Source: Xanthomonas campestris pv. campestris str. ATCC 33913 (GTDB lineage Bacteria; Pseudomonadota; Gammaproteobacteria; Xanthomonadales; Xanthomonadaceae). From it: 32,000 nt of DNA. The first letter of the stretch is position 1; every line of letters begins with the position of its first letter. Location: assembly GCF_000007145.1 (NCBI RefSeq), contig NC_003902.1, positions 1,297,436-1,329,435 on the forward strand, read 5' to 3'. Position numbers and translations under genes: made by a program. Below, in pieces: positions 4,574 to 31,506 of the stretch. The notes beneath the pieces were generated by a model that saw only the letters and a list, made by a program, of their open reading frames with translations, did no database searches and was not told the origin of the DNA.

Positions 4574-6505
4574 TCAACGCGCCTGCGACTGCCGCACCGA
4601 CTCCTGCTGCGTTGCCTGCTCCAATGCGGCAGCATCGCGCTCGGGCGACGGTCCCAATGCCTGCAAGCGCTGCAGGCTGGCTTCCACCGGCGCTTCCTGC
4701 GCCGCCTTGGCGTCGAAGCTGCCGCGCAGGTGCGCCGGTGAATCGAGCGCGCCCTGGACCACGAAGCCGCGGGCCGGGTCGTTCCCGAGCAGCACGTGGT
4801 CGACGCGCTGTAGCCCATGCTCACGCGCGGCCACCAGCGATCCCAGTGCCAGACGCTCGCTGTCCATGCCCGGCGTGGGGCCATGCGCGCCTTCCAGTCG
4901 CCCTACGGCGGCGGTGCATTGCTGCAGCAGCCCATGGTCCGGATGCGCAGGGTCGCGCGGATCAGGCACTGCCGCGGTTGCGGCCGCCGGGCGCGGTGCC
5001 ACATCGGCGTCGATGCGTTGCAGCCGGCCGTCGAACTGGCCGTCGGCGCCGTCTGCGATGCGTTGCAGGCGCTCGGCAAAGGCCGCAGGCTGCCCGCCCA
5101 CATTGCGCGCCAGCGCGATGGCGAATTGCTCGGTGTCGGATGCCTGGCCGTTGCCGACCAGTAGTGCCAACGGGCTCGCGCCGATCTTGTTGGCCGTGGC
5201 GGCGGTCTGGGTCTGCTGCAGCAACGCCTGCATCTGCTGCTCGTTGAACACCAGCGTGGTTTTCTGCCCGGCTTGAATTGCGCCTGTGCCCGCCATGTCG
5301 CCGCTGATCGCGCTATTGAGCGATTGCGCCATGGCTTTTTCTTCGCTGGCCTCGTTGCGGCCGCCCAGGCGTTGCATCAGCCCAGGGGTGGCAACGTCGC
5401 CGTCGATTTCGAAACGGTAGCTGCGCTCCTGCACGCGTTCGACATTGTTGCCGTCGTAGTGGCGCAGCACTGTCAGTGGCACGTTATCGCCGTATTTCAG
5501 CTGCTGCAGCACGGCGTAGTCGTCCTGGCCGGGTTCGCTGATGCGGATCTGGCTACCTTCATTGCGGGTGCCCCCCAGATCGGCGTCGAGCGGGCCCAGT
5601 TGCAACTGCATGCGCTGCTGCGAACTGAAACCGATCCGCTCCAGCGTCTGGATCTGATCCACGCCGGGCGTGCCGGGCGCAACCTCGCCCGTGCGCGCGA
5701 ACGCCGTCATGGCGTCGACGGCGCGTGGATCGGCCAGGTCGAACTGCGCGCTCTGCACACGTGAAGTGCCAAGGCGGTCGGTGCGGCCAACCAGGGCCTG
5801 CGCGGGGCCGGCCTTGAGTCCGATCGCATTGGCCGCTTCGATGGCGTCGTTGGGGCCGGTGGCCACGCGCACGTGGCGCTCGTCCACGCGTTCGATCAGA
5901 TAACTGCGGCCGCTGGCTTCGGTGATCTTGCTCTGCATCGCAACCTGTTGCAGGTCCGCCTTGACCTCGCGCTGTGCGAAGGCCTGGCTATCGAGCACCG
6001 CACGAGCGCCCACCGGCAAGCTCTCCGGTTGTAGCGGGTTCACCTGCGTGGCTGCGTCCAGTGATTGATCGGCGCCAGGCAGCGTCAGCGTGTAGCGCAT
6101 GCGCTGGCCGGCGGCCACGCCGGCTTCCAGGTTCAACGTGCCGCTGCCGAGTTTGGTCTGTCGGCTTTGCTGCAAGCCGGTCTGCGCGTCTGCTTCCAGG
6201 CTGAAGGTGGTGGTCTTTGCATCGGCATCGCTGACCACGCCCAGGCTCTGCGAGCTGGCGCTGCGCAGGCTGGTTTCGCCCAGCGGCTGCGTCGCACTGC
6301 CGCTGCTCTGCTGCGTGCTCTGCGTGTGCTTGACCGACTGTTCGCCGGGGTTGAGACCCAGGCTGCGGCCACCCGGCCCGTTGGCCGCGAATTCGGTGCC
6401 AGTGCTGCCGTAGGTTGGATCAAACGCGCCCTGCTGCGCGTCTGCAATGATCTGTGCATCGCGATCCGCATCGTGCGGACCCGGGCCAGTGGAGGCCTGG
6501 TTCAT
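4574..6505 (-). CDS. large hypothetical protein with an XVIPCD-like C-terminal domain; candidate X-T4SS-secreted effector (X-Tfe-like), N-terminal function unknown
   Basis: AAGGAG lies 7 nt upstream of ATG 6505. The C-terminal ~130 aa (RDPAHPDHGLLQQ...SERLALGSLVAAREHGLQRVDHVLLGNDPARGFVVQG...PVEASLQRLQ...QATQQESVRQSQ) align motif by motif with the C-terminus of the 27525..28625 protein. They also match my recollection of XVIPCD motifs (HP.H.L..Q, S..LA, G..R.D.V.L, F.VQG, P.E.S.Q, Gln-rich tail). There is no signal peptide. I do not recognise any family in the N-terminal ~480 aa. Confidence 0.6.
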   Translation of the reverse strand: MNQASTGPGPHDADRDAQIIADAQQGAFDPTYGSTGTEFAANGPGGRSLGLNPGEQSVKHTQSTQQSSGSATQPLGETSLRSASSQSLGVVSDADAKTTTFSLEADAQTGLQQSRQTKLGSGTLNLEAGVAAGQRMRYTLTLPGADQSLDAATQVNPLQPESLPVGARAVLDSQAFAQREVKADLQQVAMQSKITEASGRSYLIERVDERHVRVATGPNDAIEAANAIGLKAGPAQALVGRTDRLGTSRVQSAQFDLADPRAVDAMTAFARTGEVAPGTPGVDQIQTLERIGFSSQQRMQLQLGPLDADLGGTRNEGSQIRISEPGQDDYAVLQQLKYGDNVPLTVLRHYDGNNVERVQERSYRFEIDGDVATPGLMQRLGGRNEASEEKAMAQSLNSAISGDMAGTGAIQAGQKTTLVFNEQQMQALLQQTQTAATANKIGASPLALLVGNGQASDTEQFAIALARNVGGQPAAFAERLQRIADGADGQFDGRLQRIDADVAPRPAAATAAVPDPRDPAHPDHGLLQQCTAAVGRLEGAHGPTPGMDSERLALGSLVAAREHGLQRVDHVLLGNDPARGFVVQGALDSPAHLRGSFDAKAAQEAPVEASLQRLQALGPSPERDAAALEQATQQESVRQSQAR

Positions 6506-6634: not shown

Positions 6635-8653
6635 TCAGCGCGCGGAAGGCGCCGGCGTTGCCGGCGGCGTTGCAGTGGCCCCCTTGGCCTGCCACCCGCA
6701 CATCTGGCCCTGGTTCTGCTGTTTGAGCCATTCCTGCATCGGTGCGAAATATTCCAGCATCGGGCCGGCATCGAGCGTGTCCTTGCCGGTCACTTCCTTC
6801 AGCGTGGTCTGCCAGGGCTGGCTGGAGCCGCGTTGCAACATCGACCAGAATTTCTGGCCGGCTTCCTTGTTGCCGTAGAAGCTGCATTCGTACAGCGGCC
6901 CCTGGTGGCCGGCGGCATCGCACAGGCCCTTGTAGAACTGGAATTGCAGGATGTGCGCGAGAAAATAACGGGTGTAGGGCGTGTTGCCGGGCACGTGGTA
7001 TTTGGCGCCGGCATCGAAGAAGTCCTCGCCGCGTGGGCTCACCGGTGCCACGCCCTGGTAGGTGGCCTTCAACTCCCACCAGGCCTGGTTGTAGCGTTCC
7101 GGGGGAATCGAGCCGTCGAATACGCCCCAGCGCCAGCGGTCGATCATCAGCCCGAACGGCAGAAACGCCACCTTGCTCAGCGCCATGCGCATCTGCGAAT
7201 TGATCAATGCCTCGCGCCCGCTCTGCTGCTCGCCAACCATGCCGATCGACTGCAGGTACTTGGGGGTCATCGCCAGCACGATGGTGTCGCCGATGGCTTC
7301 GTGGAAGCCGTCGTTGGCGCCGTTCTGGAACAGCGGCGGCAACGGGTTGTAGGCCATGTCGTAATAGATGTGGCCAAGCTCATGGTAGATGGTGGTGAAG
7401 TCTTCTTCGGTGGGGCGGATGCACATCTTGGTGCGCACGTCCGGGCCGATGCCCGCGTTCGGCTCGCCACCCATGTTCATGTCCCACGCGCTGGCGTGGC
7501 AGACCACGTCGCGGTCCAGTGGCTTGATGAACTGCGAGCGTTGCCAATAGGTGTCCGGCAACTTCGGCATGCCCAGCGACGTGTAGAAATCCTGCGCGCG
7601 TTCGGTCATCTGCTGGGCAGTGCGCAGTTGCGCGTCGCGCTCGGCGAGGAAGCGTGCAGCTGCGCCGCCATCGCCACCGGTGTTGCGCGCCAGCACGGCG
7701 CTCAGGTTGCCCTGGTACTGTTTTTCCAGCGCCGAGGTGATGTCCAGGTCGCCCGCACCGGGATAGGGCTGCAGCAGATCCCACAGGTTGCTCCAGTCCT
7801 GCTGCCACATGTTGCCCATCAGGTGCGCGGGCAGCATGCCGCCGGCCACCTCGCCCTTGTCCTTGCCGTACTGCGTGTCCAGCTTGCCGCGCGCGTAGCA
7901 TTGCAGCTGGGTGTACAGCGGTTTGAGCTGTTCCCAAAGGCGGTCGGTTTCGCTGGCCAATTGCGCCGGCGGCATGTCGTAGCCGCTGCGCCACATCGCA
8001 CCGACATCGGCAAAGCCCATGCCGCGTGCACCGTCATTGGCGAGCTCGACAAAGCGCTGGTAGTCCTTGCGCATGGGTTGCGCGGTGGCGTGCCAGCCTT
8101 GCCAGGCTTGCAGTTGTTCGTCGTAGTCGCGGCTGCGTGCCAGCACTTGTTCGAGCTCGCCCAGCTGGCGGCAACGGCGTTGCTCGCCTTCACCGGTGCA
8201 GGCGCTGCCCGCGCCGTAGTCGCCTTCCATCTTCGCGGCGATACGCGTGAGTTCGGCCAGCTTGGTCGGGTCGCGCGGGGCGGGCAGGGCGCTCATCAGC
8301 TTGAGTAATTGCAGCGCACGCGCGCTGTCGGCGGACATCGGGGTGCCGGCGTACTGCTTGGATTGGTCGATCCAGCGATCCAGCTGGCTCAGCGCGCGCT
8401 CGTTGGCCTTGGCCGCCAGCAACTGCGAGTCGCCGTTGATGTAGGTCGACGACAGCCACTGCGCGGCAGTCATTTCCGGATACGCCGCCTTGTATTCGGC
8501 ACTGATGCGCGCCACGAACTGGTCGGCGCTTTCGCTGGGTGCGGTTTTGGTGGTGGCGGGCTTGGGCGTCGGCACCGCATCCTGGCGGCACGACGACAGC
8601 GACAACGTACCGGCGGCAACGGCGAGCGCCAGCAACAGCAGACGAGGATTCAC
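6635..8653 (-). CDS. peptidyl-dipeptidase A, M2 family (angiotensin-converting-enzyme homologue), lipoprotein
   Basis: GTG start at 8653 with AAGGA upstream. The signal peptide carries a lipobox (LSLSSC). The zinc site is HELGH ... HEAIGD. Length and overall pattern are typical of bacterial ACE-like M2 peptidases known from Xanthomonas. Confidence 0.9.
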   Translation of the reverse strand: MNPRLLLLALAVAAGTLSLSSCRQDAVPTPKPATTKTAPSESADQFVARISAEYKAAYPEMTAAQWLSSTYINGDSQLLAAKANERALSQLDRWIDQSKQYAGTPMSADSARALQLLKLMSALPAPRDPTKLAELTRIAAKMEGDYGAGSACTGEGEQRRCRQLGELEQVLARSRDYDEQLQAWQGWHATAQPMRKDYQRFVELANDGARGMGFADVGAMWRSGYDMPPAQLASETDRLWEQLKPLYTQLQCYARGKLDTQYGKDKGEVAGGMLPAHLMGNMWQQDWSNLWDLLQPYPGAGDLDITSALEKQYQGNLSAVLARNTGGDGGAAARFLAERDAQLRTAQQMTERAQDFYTSLGMPKLPDTYWQRSQFIKPLDRDVVCHASAWDMNMGGEPNAGIGPDVRTKMCIRPTEEDFTTIYHELGHIYYDMAYNPLPPLFQNGANDGFHEAIGDTIVLAMTPKYLQSIGMVGEQQSGREALINSQMRMALSKVAFLPFGLMIDRWRWGVFDGSIPPERYNQAWWELKATYQGVAPVSPRGEDFFDAGAKYHVPGNTPYTRYFLAHILQFQFYKGLCDAAGHQGPLYECSFYGNKEAGQKFWSMLQRGSSQPWQTTLKEVTGKDTLDAGPMLEYFAPMQEWLKQQNQGQMCGWQAKGATATPPATPAPSAR

Positions 8654-26056: not shown

Positions 26057-27259
26057 ATGACCACTCTCGGCACGCCGTTGTCGCCTTCCGCCACCCGTGT
26101 GCTGTTGCTGGGCTCGGGCGAACTGGGCAAGGAGGTCGCCATCGAGCTGCAGCGCTTCGGGGTGGAAGTGATTGCCGCCGATCGGTATGCCAACGCACCG
26201 GCCATGCAGGTGGCGCATCGTTCGCACGTGCTGGACATGCTCGACCCGCAAGCCTTGCGGGCGCTGATCGCGCAGGAGCAGCCGCACCTGATCGTGCCGG
26301 AGATCGAAGCCATCCACACCGAGACCCTGGTAGCGCTGGAGCACGAGCAGGGGCAGAAGGTGATCCCCACCGCGCGTGCCGCGCGTCTGACCATGGACCG
26401 CGAAGGCATCCGTCGCCTGGCTGCCGAAACCCTGGGCCTGCCGACCTCGCCCTACCGCTTTGTCGACACCGCCGCCGAGTATCGCGAGGCGATCGCCACA
26501 GTCGGGCTGCCGTGCGTGGTCAAGCCGGTGATGTCGTCCTCGGGCAAAGGCCAGAGCACGCTGCGCAGCGAGGCGGACATCGACGCAGCCTGGGACTACG
26601 CGCAAACGGGCGGACGCGCCGGCGCCGGCCGCTGCATCGTCGAAGGCTTCATCGATTTCGATTACGAGATCACCCTGCTGACCGTGCGCCATGCCGGTGG
26701 CACCTCGTTCTGCGACCCGATCGGACATTGGCAGAAAGATGGCGACTACCGCGAAAGCTGGCAGCCGCAGCCGATGTCGGCCGCGGCGCTGCGCCGCTCG
26801 CAGGAGATTGCACAGGCAATCACTGATGAGCTGGGCGGCTGGGGGTTGTTTGGCGTGGAGCTGTTCGTCAAGGGCGACGAGGTGTGGTTCAGCGAAGTCT
26901 CGCCGCGCCCGCACGACACCGGCCTGGTCACGCTGGTGTCGCAGGAACTGAGCGAGTTCGCGCTGCACGCGCGCGCCATTCTGGGCCTGCCGGTCGGAGC
27001 GGAGAACGGCGGCGTGATCCGTCAGAGCGGTCCCTCCGCATCGTGCGCGCTATTGGCGCATGGCAACGGCGTGCCGGTGTTCGACAACGTGGCCGAGGCC
27101 TTGCGCGACCCGGACACCGCGCTGCGCCTGTTCGGCAAGCCGCGCGTGGACGGTCATCGCCGGGTTGGCGTGACGCTGGCGCGCGCCGGCAGCATCGATG
27201 CGGCGCGCGAGAAAGCGCGCGTGGCTGCCGCGGCGCTGACGATTCAGCTTCGCGATTAA
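26057..27259 (+). CDS. purT: formate-dependent phosphoribosylglycinamide formyltransferase (GAR transformylase 2)
   Basis: [44 protein letters not shown]... The ATP-grasp core is [14 protein letters not shown], and the 400-aa length is typical of PurT. Confidence 0.93.
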
Positions 27260-27524
27260 ATAACGTAGTTCTTGCGGGGCCTTGTGGGCATCGGCTTGAC
27301 CGTTGCCCACGATTTTCAAGACTGCCTTGCTTTCAGCTGGCGAGATTGGCATGCAGCCAACGTGCAGCAATCTCGAAACATTGCTTCGTGAACCATGGTG
27401 GCTACACCCGCATTACATCCGTTGCGGGTGAGACCAAACCACTGTCAGACAGTGATCTGATAGGCATCCGTCTGCTCCATCGAAGGCGTAGGACGCAGGG
27501 GGCATGTAAGTCGAACTGCAAGTT

Positions 27525-28625
27525 TCAGGTCAAGGCCCTTGCAGGGTGTGGTTGGCTCTGCTCTTGCTGTATCTGCCTTTGCTGTTCGCCGTGCGCGCGT
27601 TCTGCCGCAGCCTGGACCCAGTTCTGACTGCTTTGCTCCAGCGGTGTATTGAGTGCAACGACAGTATCCACATGGGCACGCAACTGGTCATGCGGTCCCA
27701 GTGAGTTGGGATTGTTCTGTACCGCAAACGCATGTGAGGCGTCCTCGCTTAGACGAACGTCGTCGATGCGGTTCATGCCCATTTTGCAGGATTGCACCGC
27801 CAGGCAACCAGCCAGGTTGTCGCTGCGCGCATCCGATTGCCGGTTGTTTGCCTGATCCAAAGCTTGCACATGGGTCTGTGCCTGGGCGAACAGCGTGTGC
27901 CCAGGATGATCGGGATTACGGAGTGACGGCAGTTGCTGCTGATCGCTCAAGAGATGTTGTTGGATCGATCTGTCTGCCGGAAGCGGATGCCGAACTTCTT
28001 TGTTCAGCGGGCTTTGCGGAAACGGTGCCTCAATGCTTTCCACGCCATGAATATTGCGCAAGGGGCGGTAAGCATCTTTCCCCGAGCCTTCAACCGGCAA
28101 AGGGATGCGAACGTCCGGAAGCAGTTGTCCGACTCCGCCAGGCCCAAGCAATCCATTCACATCAATGCTCTTGTTGCGATGGAGCCCGGCATGATTGAGT
28201 GCAGCCCAGGTAAAGTCGACACAGTTGTTGTGCACGTCCCTGTACTCTTTGTCGAACCCCAGTTTTTCCGGCTCTTCACCGAATTTTTGCAGTTTTTCAT
28301 ACTGCTCTTTGCTTATTTCAATCGTTCTGGAATAGGCAGGGTTATGGTATTCCTTAGCGTCTGAGTTATAGATTTTTCCTGGTCCGTTCATCTCGCCGTG
28401 CGTGATGGGAGCAAATCCATAACTAATCGGTTTGCTCTTGCTATCGTCAAGTATAAAAAACATGTGCCCTGGCCCGGAATTGGCCGGTTCGCCATCTATA
28501 ACCTGCTGTTCGCCGTTTTTATATAGCGGGGTGCCAGGCGCCGCGATAACAATCGTTACGGTGTATTGCTGCTTATCCATCTCTTGCTCCATGTGAGATC
28601 TCGAGGCTATTTCGAGGAAGTCCAT
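27525..28625 (-). CDS. candidate X-T4SS antibacterial effector (X-Tfe-like): N-terminal His/Cys putative hydrolase domain plus C-terminal XVIPCD
   Basis: C-terminus: RNPDHPGHTLFAQAQTHVQALDQ...SDNLAGCLAVQSCKMGMNRIDDVRLSEDASHAFAVQN...LNTPLEQSSQNWVQ...GEQQRQIQQEQSQ. N-terminus: GPGHMFFIL ... ITHGE ... HNNCVDFTWAAL. Possible starts are 28625, 28592 and 28580; 28580 has GGAG 6 nt upstream. Confidence 0.65.
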   Translation of the reverse strand: MDFLEIASRSHMEQEMDKQQYTVTIVIAAPGTPLYKNGEQQVIDGEPANSGPGHMFFILDDSKSKPISYGFAPITHGEMNGPGKIYNSDAKEYHNPAYSRTIEISKEQYEKLQKFGEEPEKLGFDKEYRDVHNNCVDFTWAALNHAGLHRNKSIDVNGLLGPGGVGQLLPDVRIPLPVEGSGKDAYRPLRNIHGVESIEAPFPQSPLNKEVRHPLPADRSIQQHLLSDQQQLPSLRNPDHPGHTLFAQAQTHVQALDQANNRQSDARSDNLAGCLAVQSCKMGMNRIDDVRLSEDASHAFAVQNNPNSLGPHDQLRAHVDTVVALNTPLEQSSQNWVQAAAERAHGEQQRQIQQEQSQPHPARALT

Positions 28626-29221
28626 CTCTTTTGAATGGAAACCTGTGCAGTGGGGTCTTTCAATGTTGGATTGCTTGGCTGTGTGGAGATGTCAATGCGG
28701 TAGCGGCCGTAACTTTCTAGAGGTAGGTTGCATACAACCCAGTCACTTGAGTTTGAAGTATGGGCTCCGATGTCGATGTATTTTACTTCATCTTTTCCCT
28801 TTCTCCAGTCGAAAAATTTTTTTCTGCTGGGTTCCTCCCTCATATATTCTTGAAATGCATCTTCTGTTTTTATTTCTAAGCATCGGTCTCCCACCCACTT
28901 GCATGCCTCAACTTTAAGCGCATATCGCACGGGCGATTCGCTTTTGTTTAACATCGTGACTGGGTCGATAGATCCCTTGCGACTTAGTGTCAACCCGACG
29001 ATATAGGGCTGCGTAAGGTTCACGTTGTCCGGTGTGGCTTCGAATTCAAAGCGCACATGTTCGTCCGTGGCATCCACGCGAAATGGTTGACTGAGAAAAA
29101 GATCTTGTTTCTCGGACTGCGGCGCTTTGCTTGCACCACAGGCAGCCAGCATCGTAGCGATCACGATTGATGACCACAAACCCCGCATGCGGGAACGCAT
29201 ATCCTGCAAATTTGGTCTCAT
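28607..29221 (-). CDS. lipoprotein, candidate cognate immunity protein (X-Tfi-like)
   Basis: The signal peptide has a lipobox (SSIVIATMLAAC-GASK). The gene lies immediately upstream of the effector candidate and overlaps its longest ORF by 19 nt. GC is low. I do not recognise a family. Confidence 0.55.
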   Translation of the reverse strand: MRPNLQDMRSRMRGLWSSIVIATMLAACGASKAPQSEKQDLFLSQPFRVDATDEHVRFEFEATPDNVNLTQPYIVGLTLSRKGSIDPVTMLNKSESPVRYALKVEACKWVGDRCLEIKTEDAFQEYMREEPSRKKFFDWRKGKDEVKYIDIGAHTSNSSDWVVCNLPLESYGRYRIDISTQPSNPTLKDPTAQVSIQKRWTSSK

Positions 29222-29479
29222 CCGGTTCTCATTGCAGACAGGATTGCGTCAGAGTGTAACCCGCGATCTGAAGCCGACTAGGCCTGCCTTGTGTATAAAG
29301 GGATGAGGTGATGCCTGGCGCCTGTAAAAGCTGAAATACCGAGCTTCGTTACTGCTGGCTGGCAGGCGGCAAACCACCAGCCAGCTTGTTGCCACTATCG
29401 GCCCGGGCGGGCGAGCGAGCGGGCGCCGCCTGCCGTCGCCGGGCGTCATTCATAAAATCTCTCGGGTGCTGGTAGGCCC

Positions 29480-30700
29480 TTACTTCCCAGCCACATCCAC
29501 CCACACCGCATGGTGATCGCTGCCATCGGCGATCGCCGCATCCGGCGAGCTGCCGGCGGGCCAGAAGATGCCACTGCCGGCCAGGGTGAATTGATGCGAT
29601 GGCAGTACGTAGTCCAGCCGCATCGTGCCCGCCTGCGGTCCGAAGTCGCCGGTGACCTGGTGCGGGTCGCCGGTATGCGCAATGCCTTGTGCGGCGTATT
29701 CGGCGGTTTTTTCCGGGCCACCGGCGCTGACGGGTGTGGGGTACTTTAGTACGCGCGGGTGATTGATCAGCGCACGGATGGCTTCATGCCGGCCGGCGCC
29801 ATCGATGGGGTCGTTGTTGAGATCGCCCAGGATCACGAAGTGCGCGTCGCGTTCCAGGCCGCCACAGCGGCCCTGGTCGTCGCACAGCCAACGCGTGGTG
29901 TCGGCGGCGTTGTCCAGGTAGGCGCGCCACAGTTGCAGTTCGTCGTGGTTGCGCGCGGCATTACGCTTTTCCGCACCGTCGAATACCGGCGGAGTGGGGT
30001 GCGAAACCAATGCGTGCACCACGCCCAGCGGCGTGCGCACCGGCACGTCCCAGTGCGATTTCGACGACAGCCGCAGCTGTGCCCAGACCGCATCGTTGTA
30101 GAACGGGCGCCGGGTGGCCGGATCGACCGGGCGCAGTGCGCCGGGCAGCGCGCTCCACTTCAGCAACTGGAAACTGCGCACTGCCTGCGCATCGATCGGA
30201 TAGCGCGACAGCACCAGCATGCCGTATTGGCCAGGGTGCAGCCCATAGCCCCAGGCATCGTTGCCACGGCTGCGGCCATCGCCGCCAACGCTGCCGTTGT
30301 TGTCCAGGTCCAGGCCGCTGGGCACGCCGGTATTGACCGGTGCCAGGTAGCGATATGGATACGACAATGCGTCGCCACCGCCGGGCTGGGCCACTTGCAG
30401 ATAGCGTTGCTGGAATAGATCGGCCGCACGATGCGCAGGGTCGAAATCGAACTCGTTGAGCAGCACCAGGTCCGGGCGCACGCGCTGCAGCACGGCGGCG
30501 ATCTTGCGCGCATGCGCGCTGTCGCCCTGCAGTTCACGCACCAGCCCGCCGGCCTCGTCGGAGTACAGCGAGGTGTTGTAGGTGGCGATGCGCAAGGGGG
30601 CGGCCGTGGTGGATGCAGCGCTCTGCCCGGTCGGGGCGGTACGGTGGGCACAGGCGGTGCAAAGCGCGGCCAGTGCAAGCAATAAGACAGGTCTGATCAT
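29480..30700 (-). CDS. endonuclease/exonuclease/phosphatase (EEP) family protein, secreted
   Basis: ATG 30700 (MIRPVLLLALAALCTACAH...) is in frame within ORF 29480..30901. EEP motifs: LNEFD, GDLNNDP, SDHHAVWVD. Confidence 0.8.
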   Translation of the reverse strand: MIRPVLLLALAALCTACAHRTAPTGQSAASTTAAPLRIATYNTSLYSDEAGGLVRELQGDSAHARKIAAVLQRVRPDLVLLNEFDFDPAHRAADLFQQRYLQVAQPGGGDALSYPYRYLAPVNTGVPSGLDLDNNGSVGGDGRSRGNDAWGYGLHPGQYGMLVLSRYPIDAQAVRSFQLLKWSALPGALRPVDPATRRPFYNDAVWAQLRLSSKSHWDVPVRTPLGVVHALVSHPTPPVFDGAEKRNAARNHDELQLWRAYLDNAADTTRWLCDDQGRCGGLERDAHFVILGDLNNDPIDGAGRHEAIRALINHPRVLKYPTPVSAGGPEKTAEYAAQGIAHTGDPHQVTGDFGPQAGTMRLDYVLPSHQFTLAGSGIFWPAGSSPDAAIADGSDHHAVWVDVAGK

Positions 30701-30747
30701 GGCGCTATTCTCGCATGCAGCATGCGACAGACCGATGTCGCGTGGCG

Positions 30748-31506
30748 CTATCGGGCCGAGCCCTGGGCCGCGGGCAGGCCGCGCCAATGACGGCCGTCGT
30801 AGGCTTCCAGCGCGTTGAAGCGGCGCTTGTAATTCATCTTGGCGTGGCCTTCGATCCAGTAGCCCAGATACAGGTGCGCGCGGCGTTCGCGCCTGGCCCA
30901 CTGGATCTGTTCGAGGATGGCAAAGGTGCCCAGGCTGCGTGCAGCCGCATCCGGTGCGTAGAACGTGTACACCGCCGACAAGGCGTGCTCAGTGACATCG
31001 GTCACCGCCACCGCCAGCAGCCGGCCGGGCACATGGTCGACGGCCGGTTCGCGGATTTCCAGAAAGCGCCCGTGCGACCAGCCGCCGATCAGGAACTGAT
31101 CGAACTCGGCCGCGCCGTGCGTGTCCATGCCGCCGCCCGGATGCCGGTGCTGCAGATACTGGCGATACAGCGCCAGCTGCTCTTCGGTGCGTTCCGCGGC
31201 GACCACGCGCACCACCAGATCCTGGTTGCGCGCCAGGCAGCGGCGCTGGCTGCGGTCCGGATGAAACGCATCCACGGCAATGCGCACCGGCACGCAGGCG
31301 CGGCAGCGTTCGCAATGCGGGCGGTACACAAGATCGCCGGAACGACGAAATCCCCACGCCAGCGCCTGCGGATAGAGCGCGCCCAGGCGTGGATCGTGCG
31401 GGTCCAGCACCAGGTCGCGTGCCTGGCGATCGGACCAATACCCGCAGGCATGCTCGCCGGTCTGGAACAGGCGCAGGTCGTCGTGGGTGTCGGCATGGAT
31501 GGCCAT
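30748..31506 (-). CDS. bpt: arginyl-tRNA--protein transferase family (bacterial Bpt, Asp/Glu leucyltransferase)
   Basis: ATG 31506 ([24 protein letters not shown]...[16 protein letters not shown]...YLGYWI...KMNYKRRF) is in frame within ORF 30748..31941. The upstream extension is Arg/Gly-rich shadow sequence. Confidence 0.85.

Follow-up and report, generated by a model that had tools for sequence, protein, structure and literature searches.

The N-terminal domain of a Smlt0332-like type IV secretion effector of Xanthomonas campestris as a probable permuted papain-like Cys-His toxin

Introduction

How a secreted bacterial effector could harm a rival cell is the question raised by a gene on the minus strand of the DNA studied here, a stretch of 32,000 nucleotides from the chromosome of Xanthomonas campestris pv. 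campestris (Xcc) ATCC 33913, called the window below and supplying all coordinates unless a locus is named. Judged from its sequence, the product of this gene is an antibacterial effector (X-Tfe) of the type IV secretion system (T4SS) named X-T4SS, and the orthologue of Smlt0332 of Stenotrophomonas maltophilia. For the N-terminal domain of Smlt0332, Sgro et al. (2019) named two Xcc genes, XC_3909 and xcc-b100_0624, as nearest homologues (PMC6536674, Table 3), reported no Pfam or CDD similarity and noted VgrG-fused relatives (PMC6536674), and Bayer-Santos et al. (2019) entered Smlt0332 as a protein of unknown function (PMC6759196). The literature on Smlt0332 offers no fold, catalytic residues or activity. 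An earlier reading of the window (hereafter the original prediction) had suggested, on short motifs, a Cys-His lipid or cell-wall hydrolase of a type not known among the characterised X-Tfes. No characterised X-Tfe is of this type, and the Smlt0332-like family appears in these two papers as one of unknown function.

Our analyses suggest that the N-terminal domain very probably belongs to the permuted papain-like (NlpC/P60) superfamily, the PPNE of Xu et al. (2011), with His54 and Cys135 as its catalytic pair, and that it is remotely related to the antibacterial phospholipase Tox-Act1. The evidence consists of the conservation of both residues, a profile-profile match to the Tox-Act1 clade and the order of the elements in a structural model.

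A conserved His and Cys in the toxin domain

The toxin domain corresponds to the N-terminal ~215 residues of the protein, with a core of ~135 residues. Residues are numbered from the longest open reading frame (ORF) unless they are said to be counted from M16, the offset being 15 residues, and the elements needed here are as follows.

27525 to 28625, minus strand: effector gene, longest ORF, 366 amino acids (aa), from the ORF list.
27525 to 28580, minus strand: publicly annotated form of the effector gene, which starts at M16 and encodes 351 aa; the gene calls agree in three Xcc chromosomes.
28155 to 28580, minus strand: toxin domain, catalytic core; it spans residues 1-142 counted from M16, which are 16-157 in the longest ORF, and is supported by the model, conservation and hhalign.
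28464 to 28466, minus strand: His54 codon (His39 from M16), predicted general base, checked in the sequence.
28398 to 28400, minus strand: His76 codon (His61 from M16), named in the original prediction, codon checked; not conserved.
28221 to 28223, minus strand: Cys135 codon (Cys120 from M16), predicted nucleophile, checked in the sequence.

Close relatives were collected by a word-indexed search (159 matches), and 145 representative relatives, at ~35-50% identity, were aligned to the family profile. The motifs GPGH54MFFIL, ITH76GE and HNNC135VDFTW, from which the original prediction had been drawn, are all present in the longest ORF as they had been read, and the His that had been placed about 80 residues before a Cys in an NC-type box stands 81 residues before it. 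Both residues are nearly invariant, H54 being present in 126 of 128 relatives and C135, which is the single Cys of the domain, in 136 of 138. H76, the other His of that signature, is not a second catalytic His, since only 61 of 132 relatives (46%) keep it, the rest having S, E, T, P, D or Q at this position. It lies 22 residues past H54, against 12 for the second His of LRAT. Every His of the domain besides H54 falls below 50% conservation, and H145 (H130 from M16), considered as a partner of the Cys, was rejected because only 62 of 136 relatives keep it.

The family box around the Cys reads N-[SN]-C-[VI]-D-[FY], with a conserved Asn at -2, the Asn at -1 being mostly Ser outside Xanthomonas. 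The other near-invariant positions (from M16) are T17, S35, G38, G55, F56, P58, G68, Y78, R85, E88, Q93, F109, Y113, N118, D122 and F123. In one relative, P0208, the His and the Cys have both disappeared along with N118, Y78 and Y113, as would be expected of a decayed enzyme.

Profile relation to the Tox-Act1 clade

Tox-Act1 (STox_15), an effector of the Salmonella type VI secretion system (T6SS) described in PLoS Biol in 2026, is a phospholipase of the permuted NlpC/P60 group (PMC12994826). It is toxic only in the periplasm, requires H43 and C151 and cleaves phosphatidylglycerol and phosphatidylethanolamine (PMC12994826); DUF4105/Lnb and TseH are its relatives, DUF4105 being the sister clade (PMC12994826). 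Our reference for the Tox-Act1 clade consists of 8 aligned sequences, namely an Aeromonas caviae plasmid homologue that appears in the published S3A table and seven more; 76 plasmid records with relatives were found. The Salmonella sequence of this reference has a His-Cys spacing of 108, as between H43 and C151 of Tox-Act1.

When this reference was compared by hhalign with a 62-sequence core of the toxin family, the two profiles matched with a probability of 82.8% (P 9.4e-6, score 39.4) over 101 collinear columns, which begin at the His strand and close where the Cys helix ends, the His being set on the His and the Cys on the Cys. A 114-sequence family alignment gave scores of 30.1 and 35.1 against the Tox-Act1 reference. 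Column shuffles of either partner yielded a mean of 13.1-13.5 (standard deviation 2.6-2.8, maximum 23.4), and none of the 250 shuffles reached the observed score (z ~6). For scale, Tox-Act1 scored 22.6 against LRAT and 20.5 against DeSI with the same references. The similarity to the Tox-Act1 clade, significant at profile level, links the domain with an accepted member of the permuted NlpC/P60 group.

HMMER comparisons between the toxin family and Tox-Act1 were marginal, with a best E of 8.7e-5 in an 8-sequence database, and entries for Xanthomonas, Stenotrophomonas or XVIPCD proteins were not found in the accessible part of the published clade tables (PMC12994826). The Smlt0332-like domain appears to lie outside the published Tox-Act1 family, the relation being visible only between profiles. 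We conclude from these comparisons that the domain is a remote homologue of the Tox-Act1 clade within the permuted NlpC/P60 group, yet a separate family.

Predicted structure of the core

The AlphaFold model of the full domain has a predicted local distance difference test score (pLDDT) of 86, and that of the 142-residue core a pLDDT of 94.5 and a predicted template modelling score (pTM) of 0.87. In the core, DSSP assigns strands (from M16) to residues 6-13, 18-21, 39-45, 52-58, 65-71 and 83-89 and helices to 91-102 and 120-130, with a short strand at 112-114, containing Y113, between the two helices. The layout is that of a beta-rich N-terminal half with the His, followed by two helices, the Cys opening the second. 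His54 (H39 from M16) is the first residue of strand 39-45 and is N-terminal to the Cys, which is the permuted order; helix 120-130 begins with Cys135 (C120 from M16). In the core published for permuted NlpC/P60 enzymes, the His belongs to a subdomain built on a beta-sheet of ~5 strands, and of the two helices that come next the second bears the Cys (PMC3142127); the order of elements in the model matches this core. The original prediction of a permuted papain-like domain is borne out by the Tox-Act1 profile match and by the element positions that the His and Cys occupy in the model.

Secretion domain and layout of the effector

The remainder of the protein is made up of three segments.

27936 to 28154, minus strand: extension at the C-terminal side of the toxin domain, covering residues 143-215 when counted from M16.
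27615 to 27920, minus strand: XVIPCD, the VirD4-interacting secretion domain, residues 236-337, Pfam PF20410.
27528 to 27614, minus strand: Gln-rich C-terminal tail after the XVIPCD, seen in the translation.

The XVIPCD matches PF20410 with an E of 1.6e-26 and 93.2 bits, for a cut-off of 24.9, over profile positions 1-100 of 101, and the matches among PDB sequences are the XVIPCD-bearing chains 7r6s, 9p3h and 7mu9. The protein has the C-terminal XVIPCD by which X-Tfes are recognised, and XVIPCDs have been described with Gln-rich tails (PMC10432156); this domain is the predicted secretion signal of the effector. It is also the sole match of the protein, residues 1-230 having none in Pfam, NCBIfam or the PDB sequences, whether searched as a single protein or as two family profiles.

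The extension occurs in XVIPCD- and PAAR-linked relatives and is missing from those linked to RTX repeats; in an exhaustive search, the profile was covered to position ~207 in many relatives and only to ~135 in others. It carries the conserved block GK..RP..N...I..P.P.S.LN, and its model has a pLDDT of 89-95 at residues 170-200 and low values at 141-160.

The true start of the protein is probably M16 (ATG at 28578-28580), because a GGAG at 28587-28590 sits 6 nucleotides (nt) 5' of this codon, because the longest ORF runs 19 nt into the upstream gene and because the public gene calls give 351 aa. In this form the protein is identical (100%) to a 351-aa "XVIPCD domain-containing protein" of many Xcc genomes.

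A conserved upstream lipoprotein as putative immunity protein

Directly upstream of the effector gene lies a second gene of the same strand.

28607 to 29221, minus strand: lipoprotein gene, putative periplasmic immunity, 204 aa, lipobox MLAAC.

The codon of the lipobox Cys28 is at 29138-29140, and the gene ends 27 nt before the effector start codon. Among 78 genome loci with toxin relatives (L001 to L078), a homologous ORF is found directly upstream, just before position 6001 of the locus, in nearly all; an iterative search joins 73 of these upstream ORFs into one family, and 61 of 71 of their proteins show a lipobox-like motif. The adjacent immunity gene characteristic of an X-Tfe is present by position in these 73 loci, protection being predicted only, and the lipoprotein is likely to be a periplasmic immunity protein. 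Since the protein that regularly accompanies the toxin is a lipoprotein and bears a signal peptide, the toxin would act in the periplasm or at the membrane.

The Burkholderia counterpart (locus L083, 5424-5969) is a DUF5625 protein (E 1.7e-12). DUF5625 was matched below threshold by 5 of 9 diverse members of the lipoprotein family, two of them over the full profile, and hhalign related the family to DUF5625 with a probability of 53%; we regard the upstream lipoproteins as a putative divergent branch of DUF5625. Our literature search found no paper mentioning DUF5625.

In three Stenotrophomonas loci (L006, L009 and L010; ~4770-5960 and 7120-7581), two tandem immunity copies are present upstream, or an extra copy downstream; these extra copies are possible orphan immunity genes.

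Proposed mechanism

We propose that the toxin, after delivery into a rival Gram-negative cell, would act in the periplasm or at a membrane face, where Cys135, activated by His54, would attack a fatty-acyl ester to give an acyl-thioester that water would then hydrolyse. By likeness to Tox-Act1, the nearest characterised relative, and in view of the periplasmic immunity lipoprotein, the most likely substrate would be the acyl chain of phosphatidylglycerol or phosphatidylethanolamine; to a phospholipid substrate as such we give slightly less than an even chance. Lysophospholipids would build up and lead to membrane damage, and in sister cells the upstream DUF5625-like lipoprotein would block the toxin. 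Taken as a whole, the account, in which a Cys-His acyl hydrolase, probably one of phospholipids, acts in the periplasm, stands in our judgement at about an even chance.

Evidence against the proposal and alternative explanations

Several observations weigh against this account. The Tox-Act1 link is remote and built on an 8-sequence reference alignment, and with a 19-sequence family alignment the match falls to a probability of 18%. The His-Cys spacing is 108 in Tox-Act1 against 81 in the Smlt0332-like family, and the C-terminal extension and the immunity family differ from those of Tox-Act1, so that the substrate could differ too; the conserved R85, E88 and Q93 (from M16) would also suit a peptide. 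The position 12-15 residues after the His, where the third member of the triad would stand, is occupied by an aromatic residue, with an invariant Gly right after it (S-Y-G-F), instead of a conserved polar residue; PPPDE1 likewise has a Phe at the third position, and mutagenesis of LRAT suggests that the residue is dispensable (PMC3142127). The pairing of H54 with C135 is predicted from alignment and element order. Regarding secretion, Smlt0332 was negative in a VirD4 two-hybrid assay in 2024, for which the authors note possible false negatives (PMC11253643), and some Xcc strains have a fragmented T4SS locus (PMC6536674).

The fold searches and the comparisons with better known families weigh in the same direction. 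The Foldseek check that the original prediction had proposed gave, for the full-domain and core models, no match below E 0.1 in the PDB, and the structures of TseH and PPPDE were not among the 50 PDB matches listed. Membership in the LRAT/H-Rev107 family, which had also been envisaged, is not sustained: PF04970 (LRAT) has no match among 62 members of the toxin family even at E 10, hhalign gives P 0.096 over 19 columns (p 0.11 against 150 column shuffles), and the second His and the NCEHF box are missing. With DeSI-1, hhalign gives P 0.006-0.054 on a narrow alignment, with a shuffle p of 0.07, which is not significant. HMMER searches against the LRAT and PPPDE references were negative as well, and all these negatives are weak, the LRAT/PLAAT and PPPDE/DeSI reference alignments being narrow (close vertebrate orthologues only); a scan of viral contigs for a wider PPPDE reference found nothing.

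Other comparisons point, weakly, towards the papain-like enzymes. In LRAT and DeSI alike, hhalign set C135 on the catalytic Cys, with a Tyr at -7 and a Phe at +3 in common. Below the Pfam thresholds, the 62 members gave matches to Peptidase_C97 (three, best E 0.03), Lnb_N/DUF4105 (two, best E 0.0026) and CHAP (one); all are papain-like families, and these weak, independent pointers to the same clan are suggestive, not proof. NlpC_P60 and DUF6695 had no match among these members at the lax Pfam threshold. Two further scans, of 10 members each, did not show which proteins lie behind the Peptidase_C97 and Lnb_N matches.

Among the 50 PDB matches listed, the best TM-scores were those of Aichivirus 2A (TMt 0.50) and HRASLS2 (TMt 0.38). 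Aichivirus 2A, an LRAT-like H-box/NC protein, superposes with a root-mean-square deviation of 4.3 A over 125 columns; for scale, the deviation between PPPDE1 and YiiX, both accepted members, is 4.2 A for 119 residues (PMC3142127). Human NTAQ1, which had the top Foldseek E-values, was set aside for its poor superposition. Foldseek against viral models gave no significant match, the nearest to the core being uncharacterised giant-virus proteins of Homavirus (A0A3G5A5F0, probability 0.99, TMq 0.53), Tupanvirus (A0A6N1NL70, probability 0.72, TMq 0.39) and Moumouvirus (A0A2P1EKP2, probability 0.66, TMq 0.44).

Four other Cys enzyme types were considered and rejected: L,D-transpeptidases, whose His-Cys spacing is ~16-20 against 81 here; sortases, in which a barrel strand carries the Cys; caspase-like clan CD, where the Cys follows a strand in an alpha/beta sandwich; and clan CE (Ulp1/YopJ), plentiful in the PDB yet absent from the 50 Foldseek matches listed.

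Several other explanations could be put forward, the first being that the same fold and Cys-His pair act on peptidoglycan, as an amidase or endopeptidase cutting stem peptides like Tae/Tse1, which are canonical NlpC/P60 effectors, and causing lysis. Most predicted X-Tfes are periplasm-acting peptidoglycan hydrolases (PMC6536674), a periplasmic lipoprotein as immunity protein is equally compatible with such a target, R85, E88, Q93 and D122 (from M16) could bind a peptide stem, and one member weakly matches CHAP. However, the literature ties the permuted topology to hydrophobic pockets and acyl substrates (PMC3142127, PMC12994826), the nearest profile relative, Tox-Act1, is a phospholipase, TseH, formerly called an endopeptidase, is also phospholipase-active, and Pfam NlpC_P60 is unmatched in all 62 members scanned. 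We consider a peptidoglycan substrate unlikely.

Somewhat less likely again would be an enzyme that transfers or removes acyl groups on a specific envelope molecule (lipoproteins, lipid A or cardiolipin) and forms, with the DUF5625-like lipoprotein, a distinct toxin-immunity system. The family-specific insertion and the C-terminal extension would then give specificity, and such an enzyme, if real, would represent a new activity among contact-dependent toxins, carried on T4SS, T6SS and type I secretion system (T1SS) alike.

A narrower form, in which the same fold removes or transfers the acyl chains of lipoproteins or lipid A and not of bulk phospholipid, has a still smaller chance in our estimation. 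Two members weakly match Lnb_N/DUF4105 (best E 0.0026), and the Lnb N-acyltransferases handle lipoproteins; DUF4105 is the sister clade of Tox-Act1, for which lipoproteins have been suggested as possible targets (PMC12994826); YiiX has been proposed to cleave fatty-acyl amides of lipoproteins (PMC3142127); and the family has a C-terminal extension and an immunity family of its own. Against it, the sole biochemistry in the wider clade is phospholipid hydrolysis.

Finally, it is improbable that the His and Cys are kept for metal binding, for structure or as a convergent motif in a domain that is not a papain-like enzyme, as the non-significant Foldseek results in the PDB and viral models, the HMMER searches without a known family and the chance-level LRAT and PPPDE comparisons might suggest, given that the 101-column Tox-Act1 alignment sets both residues on the catalytic pair far above the shuffle nulls, that the Cys heads a helix and the His lies in a strand, as they do in papain-like enzymes, that one Cys and one His are too few for a metal site and that the L,D-transpeptidase, sortase and caspase-like orderings clash with the 81-residue spacing or the secondary structure.

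Distribution of the family and delivery modules

An exhaustive profile search found 666 representative clusters at E <= 0.001, with 471 at E <= 1e-10. The hosts of the Smlt0332-like domain include Xanthomonas, Stenotrophomonas, Lysobacter relatives, Burkholderia, Ralstonia, Kingella and others, the Stenotrophomonas relatives being ~63% identical across the N-terminal domain. In most Xanthomonadales the toxin domain is paired with an XVIPCD; in five proteins it is C-terminal to PAAR, in proteins of 675-1697 aa it is N-terminal to RTX repeats, and it is also found with a Phage_GPD/VgrG module. It is because of these fusions to PAAR, Phage_GPD/VgrG, RTX and XVIPCD modules that we regard the domain as a toxin.

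On plasmid pBMC401 of Burkholderia ambifaria (locus L083, 5424-12360), a calcium-binding protein of RTX type, 1925 aa long, has the toxin core as its N-terminal part, with a DUF5625 gene before the toxin gene and a type I secretion permease/ATPase after it. This arrangement indicates that the toxin module would be delivered by the T1SS too.

Two diverged toxin-immunity pairs per genome were observed in X. hortorum, X. prunicola, X. arboricola, X. pisi and a Hydromonas metagenome-assembled genome (paired loci L001/L034, L004/L043, L030/L049, L039/L048 and L026/L029).

Genomic setting

The effector and lipoprotein genes form an islet of low guanine-cytosine (GC) content, with the following limits and neighbours.

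27260 to 29479, no strand: low-GC two-gene islet, GC 0.44-0.58 against ~0.67 on both sides.
26057 to 27259, plus strand: purT, islet neighbour, from the Pfam families of neighbouring genes.
29480 to 30901, minus strand: Exo_endo_phos gene, islet neighbour, from the Pfam families of neighbouring genes.

The chromosome around the islet has 66-68% GC and the flanking genes 67-68%, and the islet does not adjoin T4SS genes. Within it the GC content is a mosaic, at 47.6% in the immunity gene, 47.4% in the catalytic core, 56.6% in the extension, 57.2% in the XVIPCD and 63.2% in the tail, which fits a foreign toxin-immunity cassette that would have recombined onto a resident secretion domain.

In one Xcc strain (locus L081, 9192-10559), an insertion sequence with a DDE_Tnp_1 transposase lies between the effector gene and purT, at the islet edge. 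Elsewhere in the window, a glycine riboswitch aptamer is found at 2351-2465 on the minus strand (Rfam RF00504, 65.6 bits, E 1.1e-11).

Significance

The Smlt0332-like domain is a widespread toxin module found on T4SS, T6SS and T1SS, with a function unknown in the literature searched. The present analysis adds the names of two predicted catalytic residues and connects the domain with Tox-Act1, within the permuted NlpC/P60 group the only toxin with lipid targets that has been characterised biochemically. If the proposed account is true, X-T4SS effectors would gain their first Cys-His acyl-hydrolase, and DUF5625, an uncharacterised Pfam family, would have a probable role in immunity; DUF5625 may be an immunity family. 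Within a known kind of toxin, the Smlt0332-like domain stands as a family of its own, which will be no surprise to specialists but gives a testable function to a widespread domain.

Comparison with known systems

Within the permuted NlpC/P60 group, further bacterial branches placed next to Tox-Act1 are the T6SS toxin TseH of Vibrio cholerae (DUF6695) and the Lnb/DUF4105 N-acyltransferases. DUF6695 is without a match in the 62 family members, in contrast to the weak Lnb_N matches of two of them.

The PPPDE/DeSI family (Peptidase_C97, PF05903) shares with the toxin domain a His...Cys dyad without a polar third residue (PMC3142127) and a strand-helix-Tyr-x6-Cys segment, which aligns with DeSI-1 around its Cys108. 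It is a eukaryotic and viral family, and the region after the Cys helix differs. Some of the published Tox-Act1-clade proteins carry a Peptidase_C97 annotation.

LRAT/H-Rev107 (PLAAT, PF04970) resembles the toxin domain in the His before the Cys, in a Cys that opens a helix and has Tyr at -7 and Phe at +3, and, by our proposal, in acyl-enzyme chemistry. It differs by a second His 12 residues past the first and by its NCEHF box, both absent from the toxin domain, which has N-[SN]-C-[VI]-D-[FY] around its Cys. The toxin domain is also without the C-terminal membrane anchor of LRAT/H-Rev107.

The likeness is closest with Tox-Act1, which shares the G-x-G-H-[AM]-[FW]-x-S-[IV] motif, an aromatic-Y-G about 15 residues past the His, the Y-x6-C with N-[NS]-C and the A-L-x-x-A-G in the Cys helix, and whose clade matches the entire core at profile level; both are antibacterial toxins with a His upstream of the Cys, and both have PAAR fusions among their relatives. 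The Smlt0332-like family has an extra insertion of ~20 residues between the first strand and the His strand, unlike Tox-Act1. Delivery here is by the T4SS, through the XVIPCD, against the T6SS for Tox-Act1. The immunity candidate also differs, an upstream DUF5625-like lipoprotein of ~200 aa here against small downstream ORFs of 87-97 aa in the Tox-Act1-clade loci retrieved. On Aeromonas and Providencia plasmids, such an overlapping ORF of 87-97 aa follows the Tox-Act1-clade toxin gene (loci L086, 1319-1591; L088, 1625-1888; L091, 1295-1588), and these ORFs are presumably the immunity genes of that clade; many of the plasmids with Tox-Act1-clade toxin genes are conjugative.

With Smlt0332 of S. 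maltophilia K279a, the Xcc effector shares its family, and nothing of substance differs between the two.

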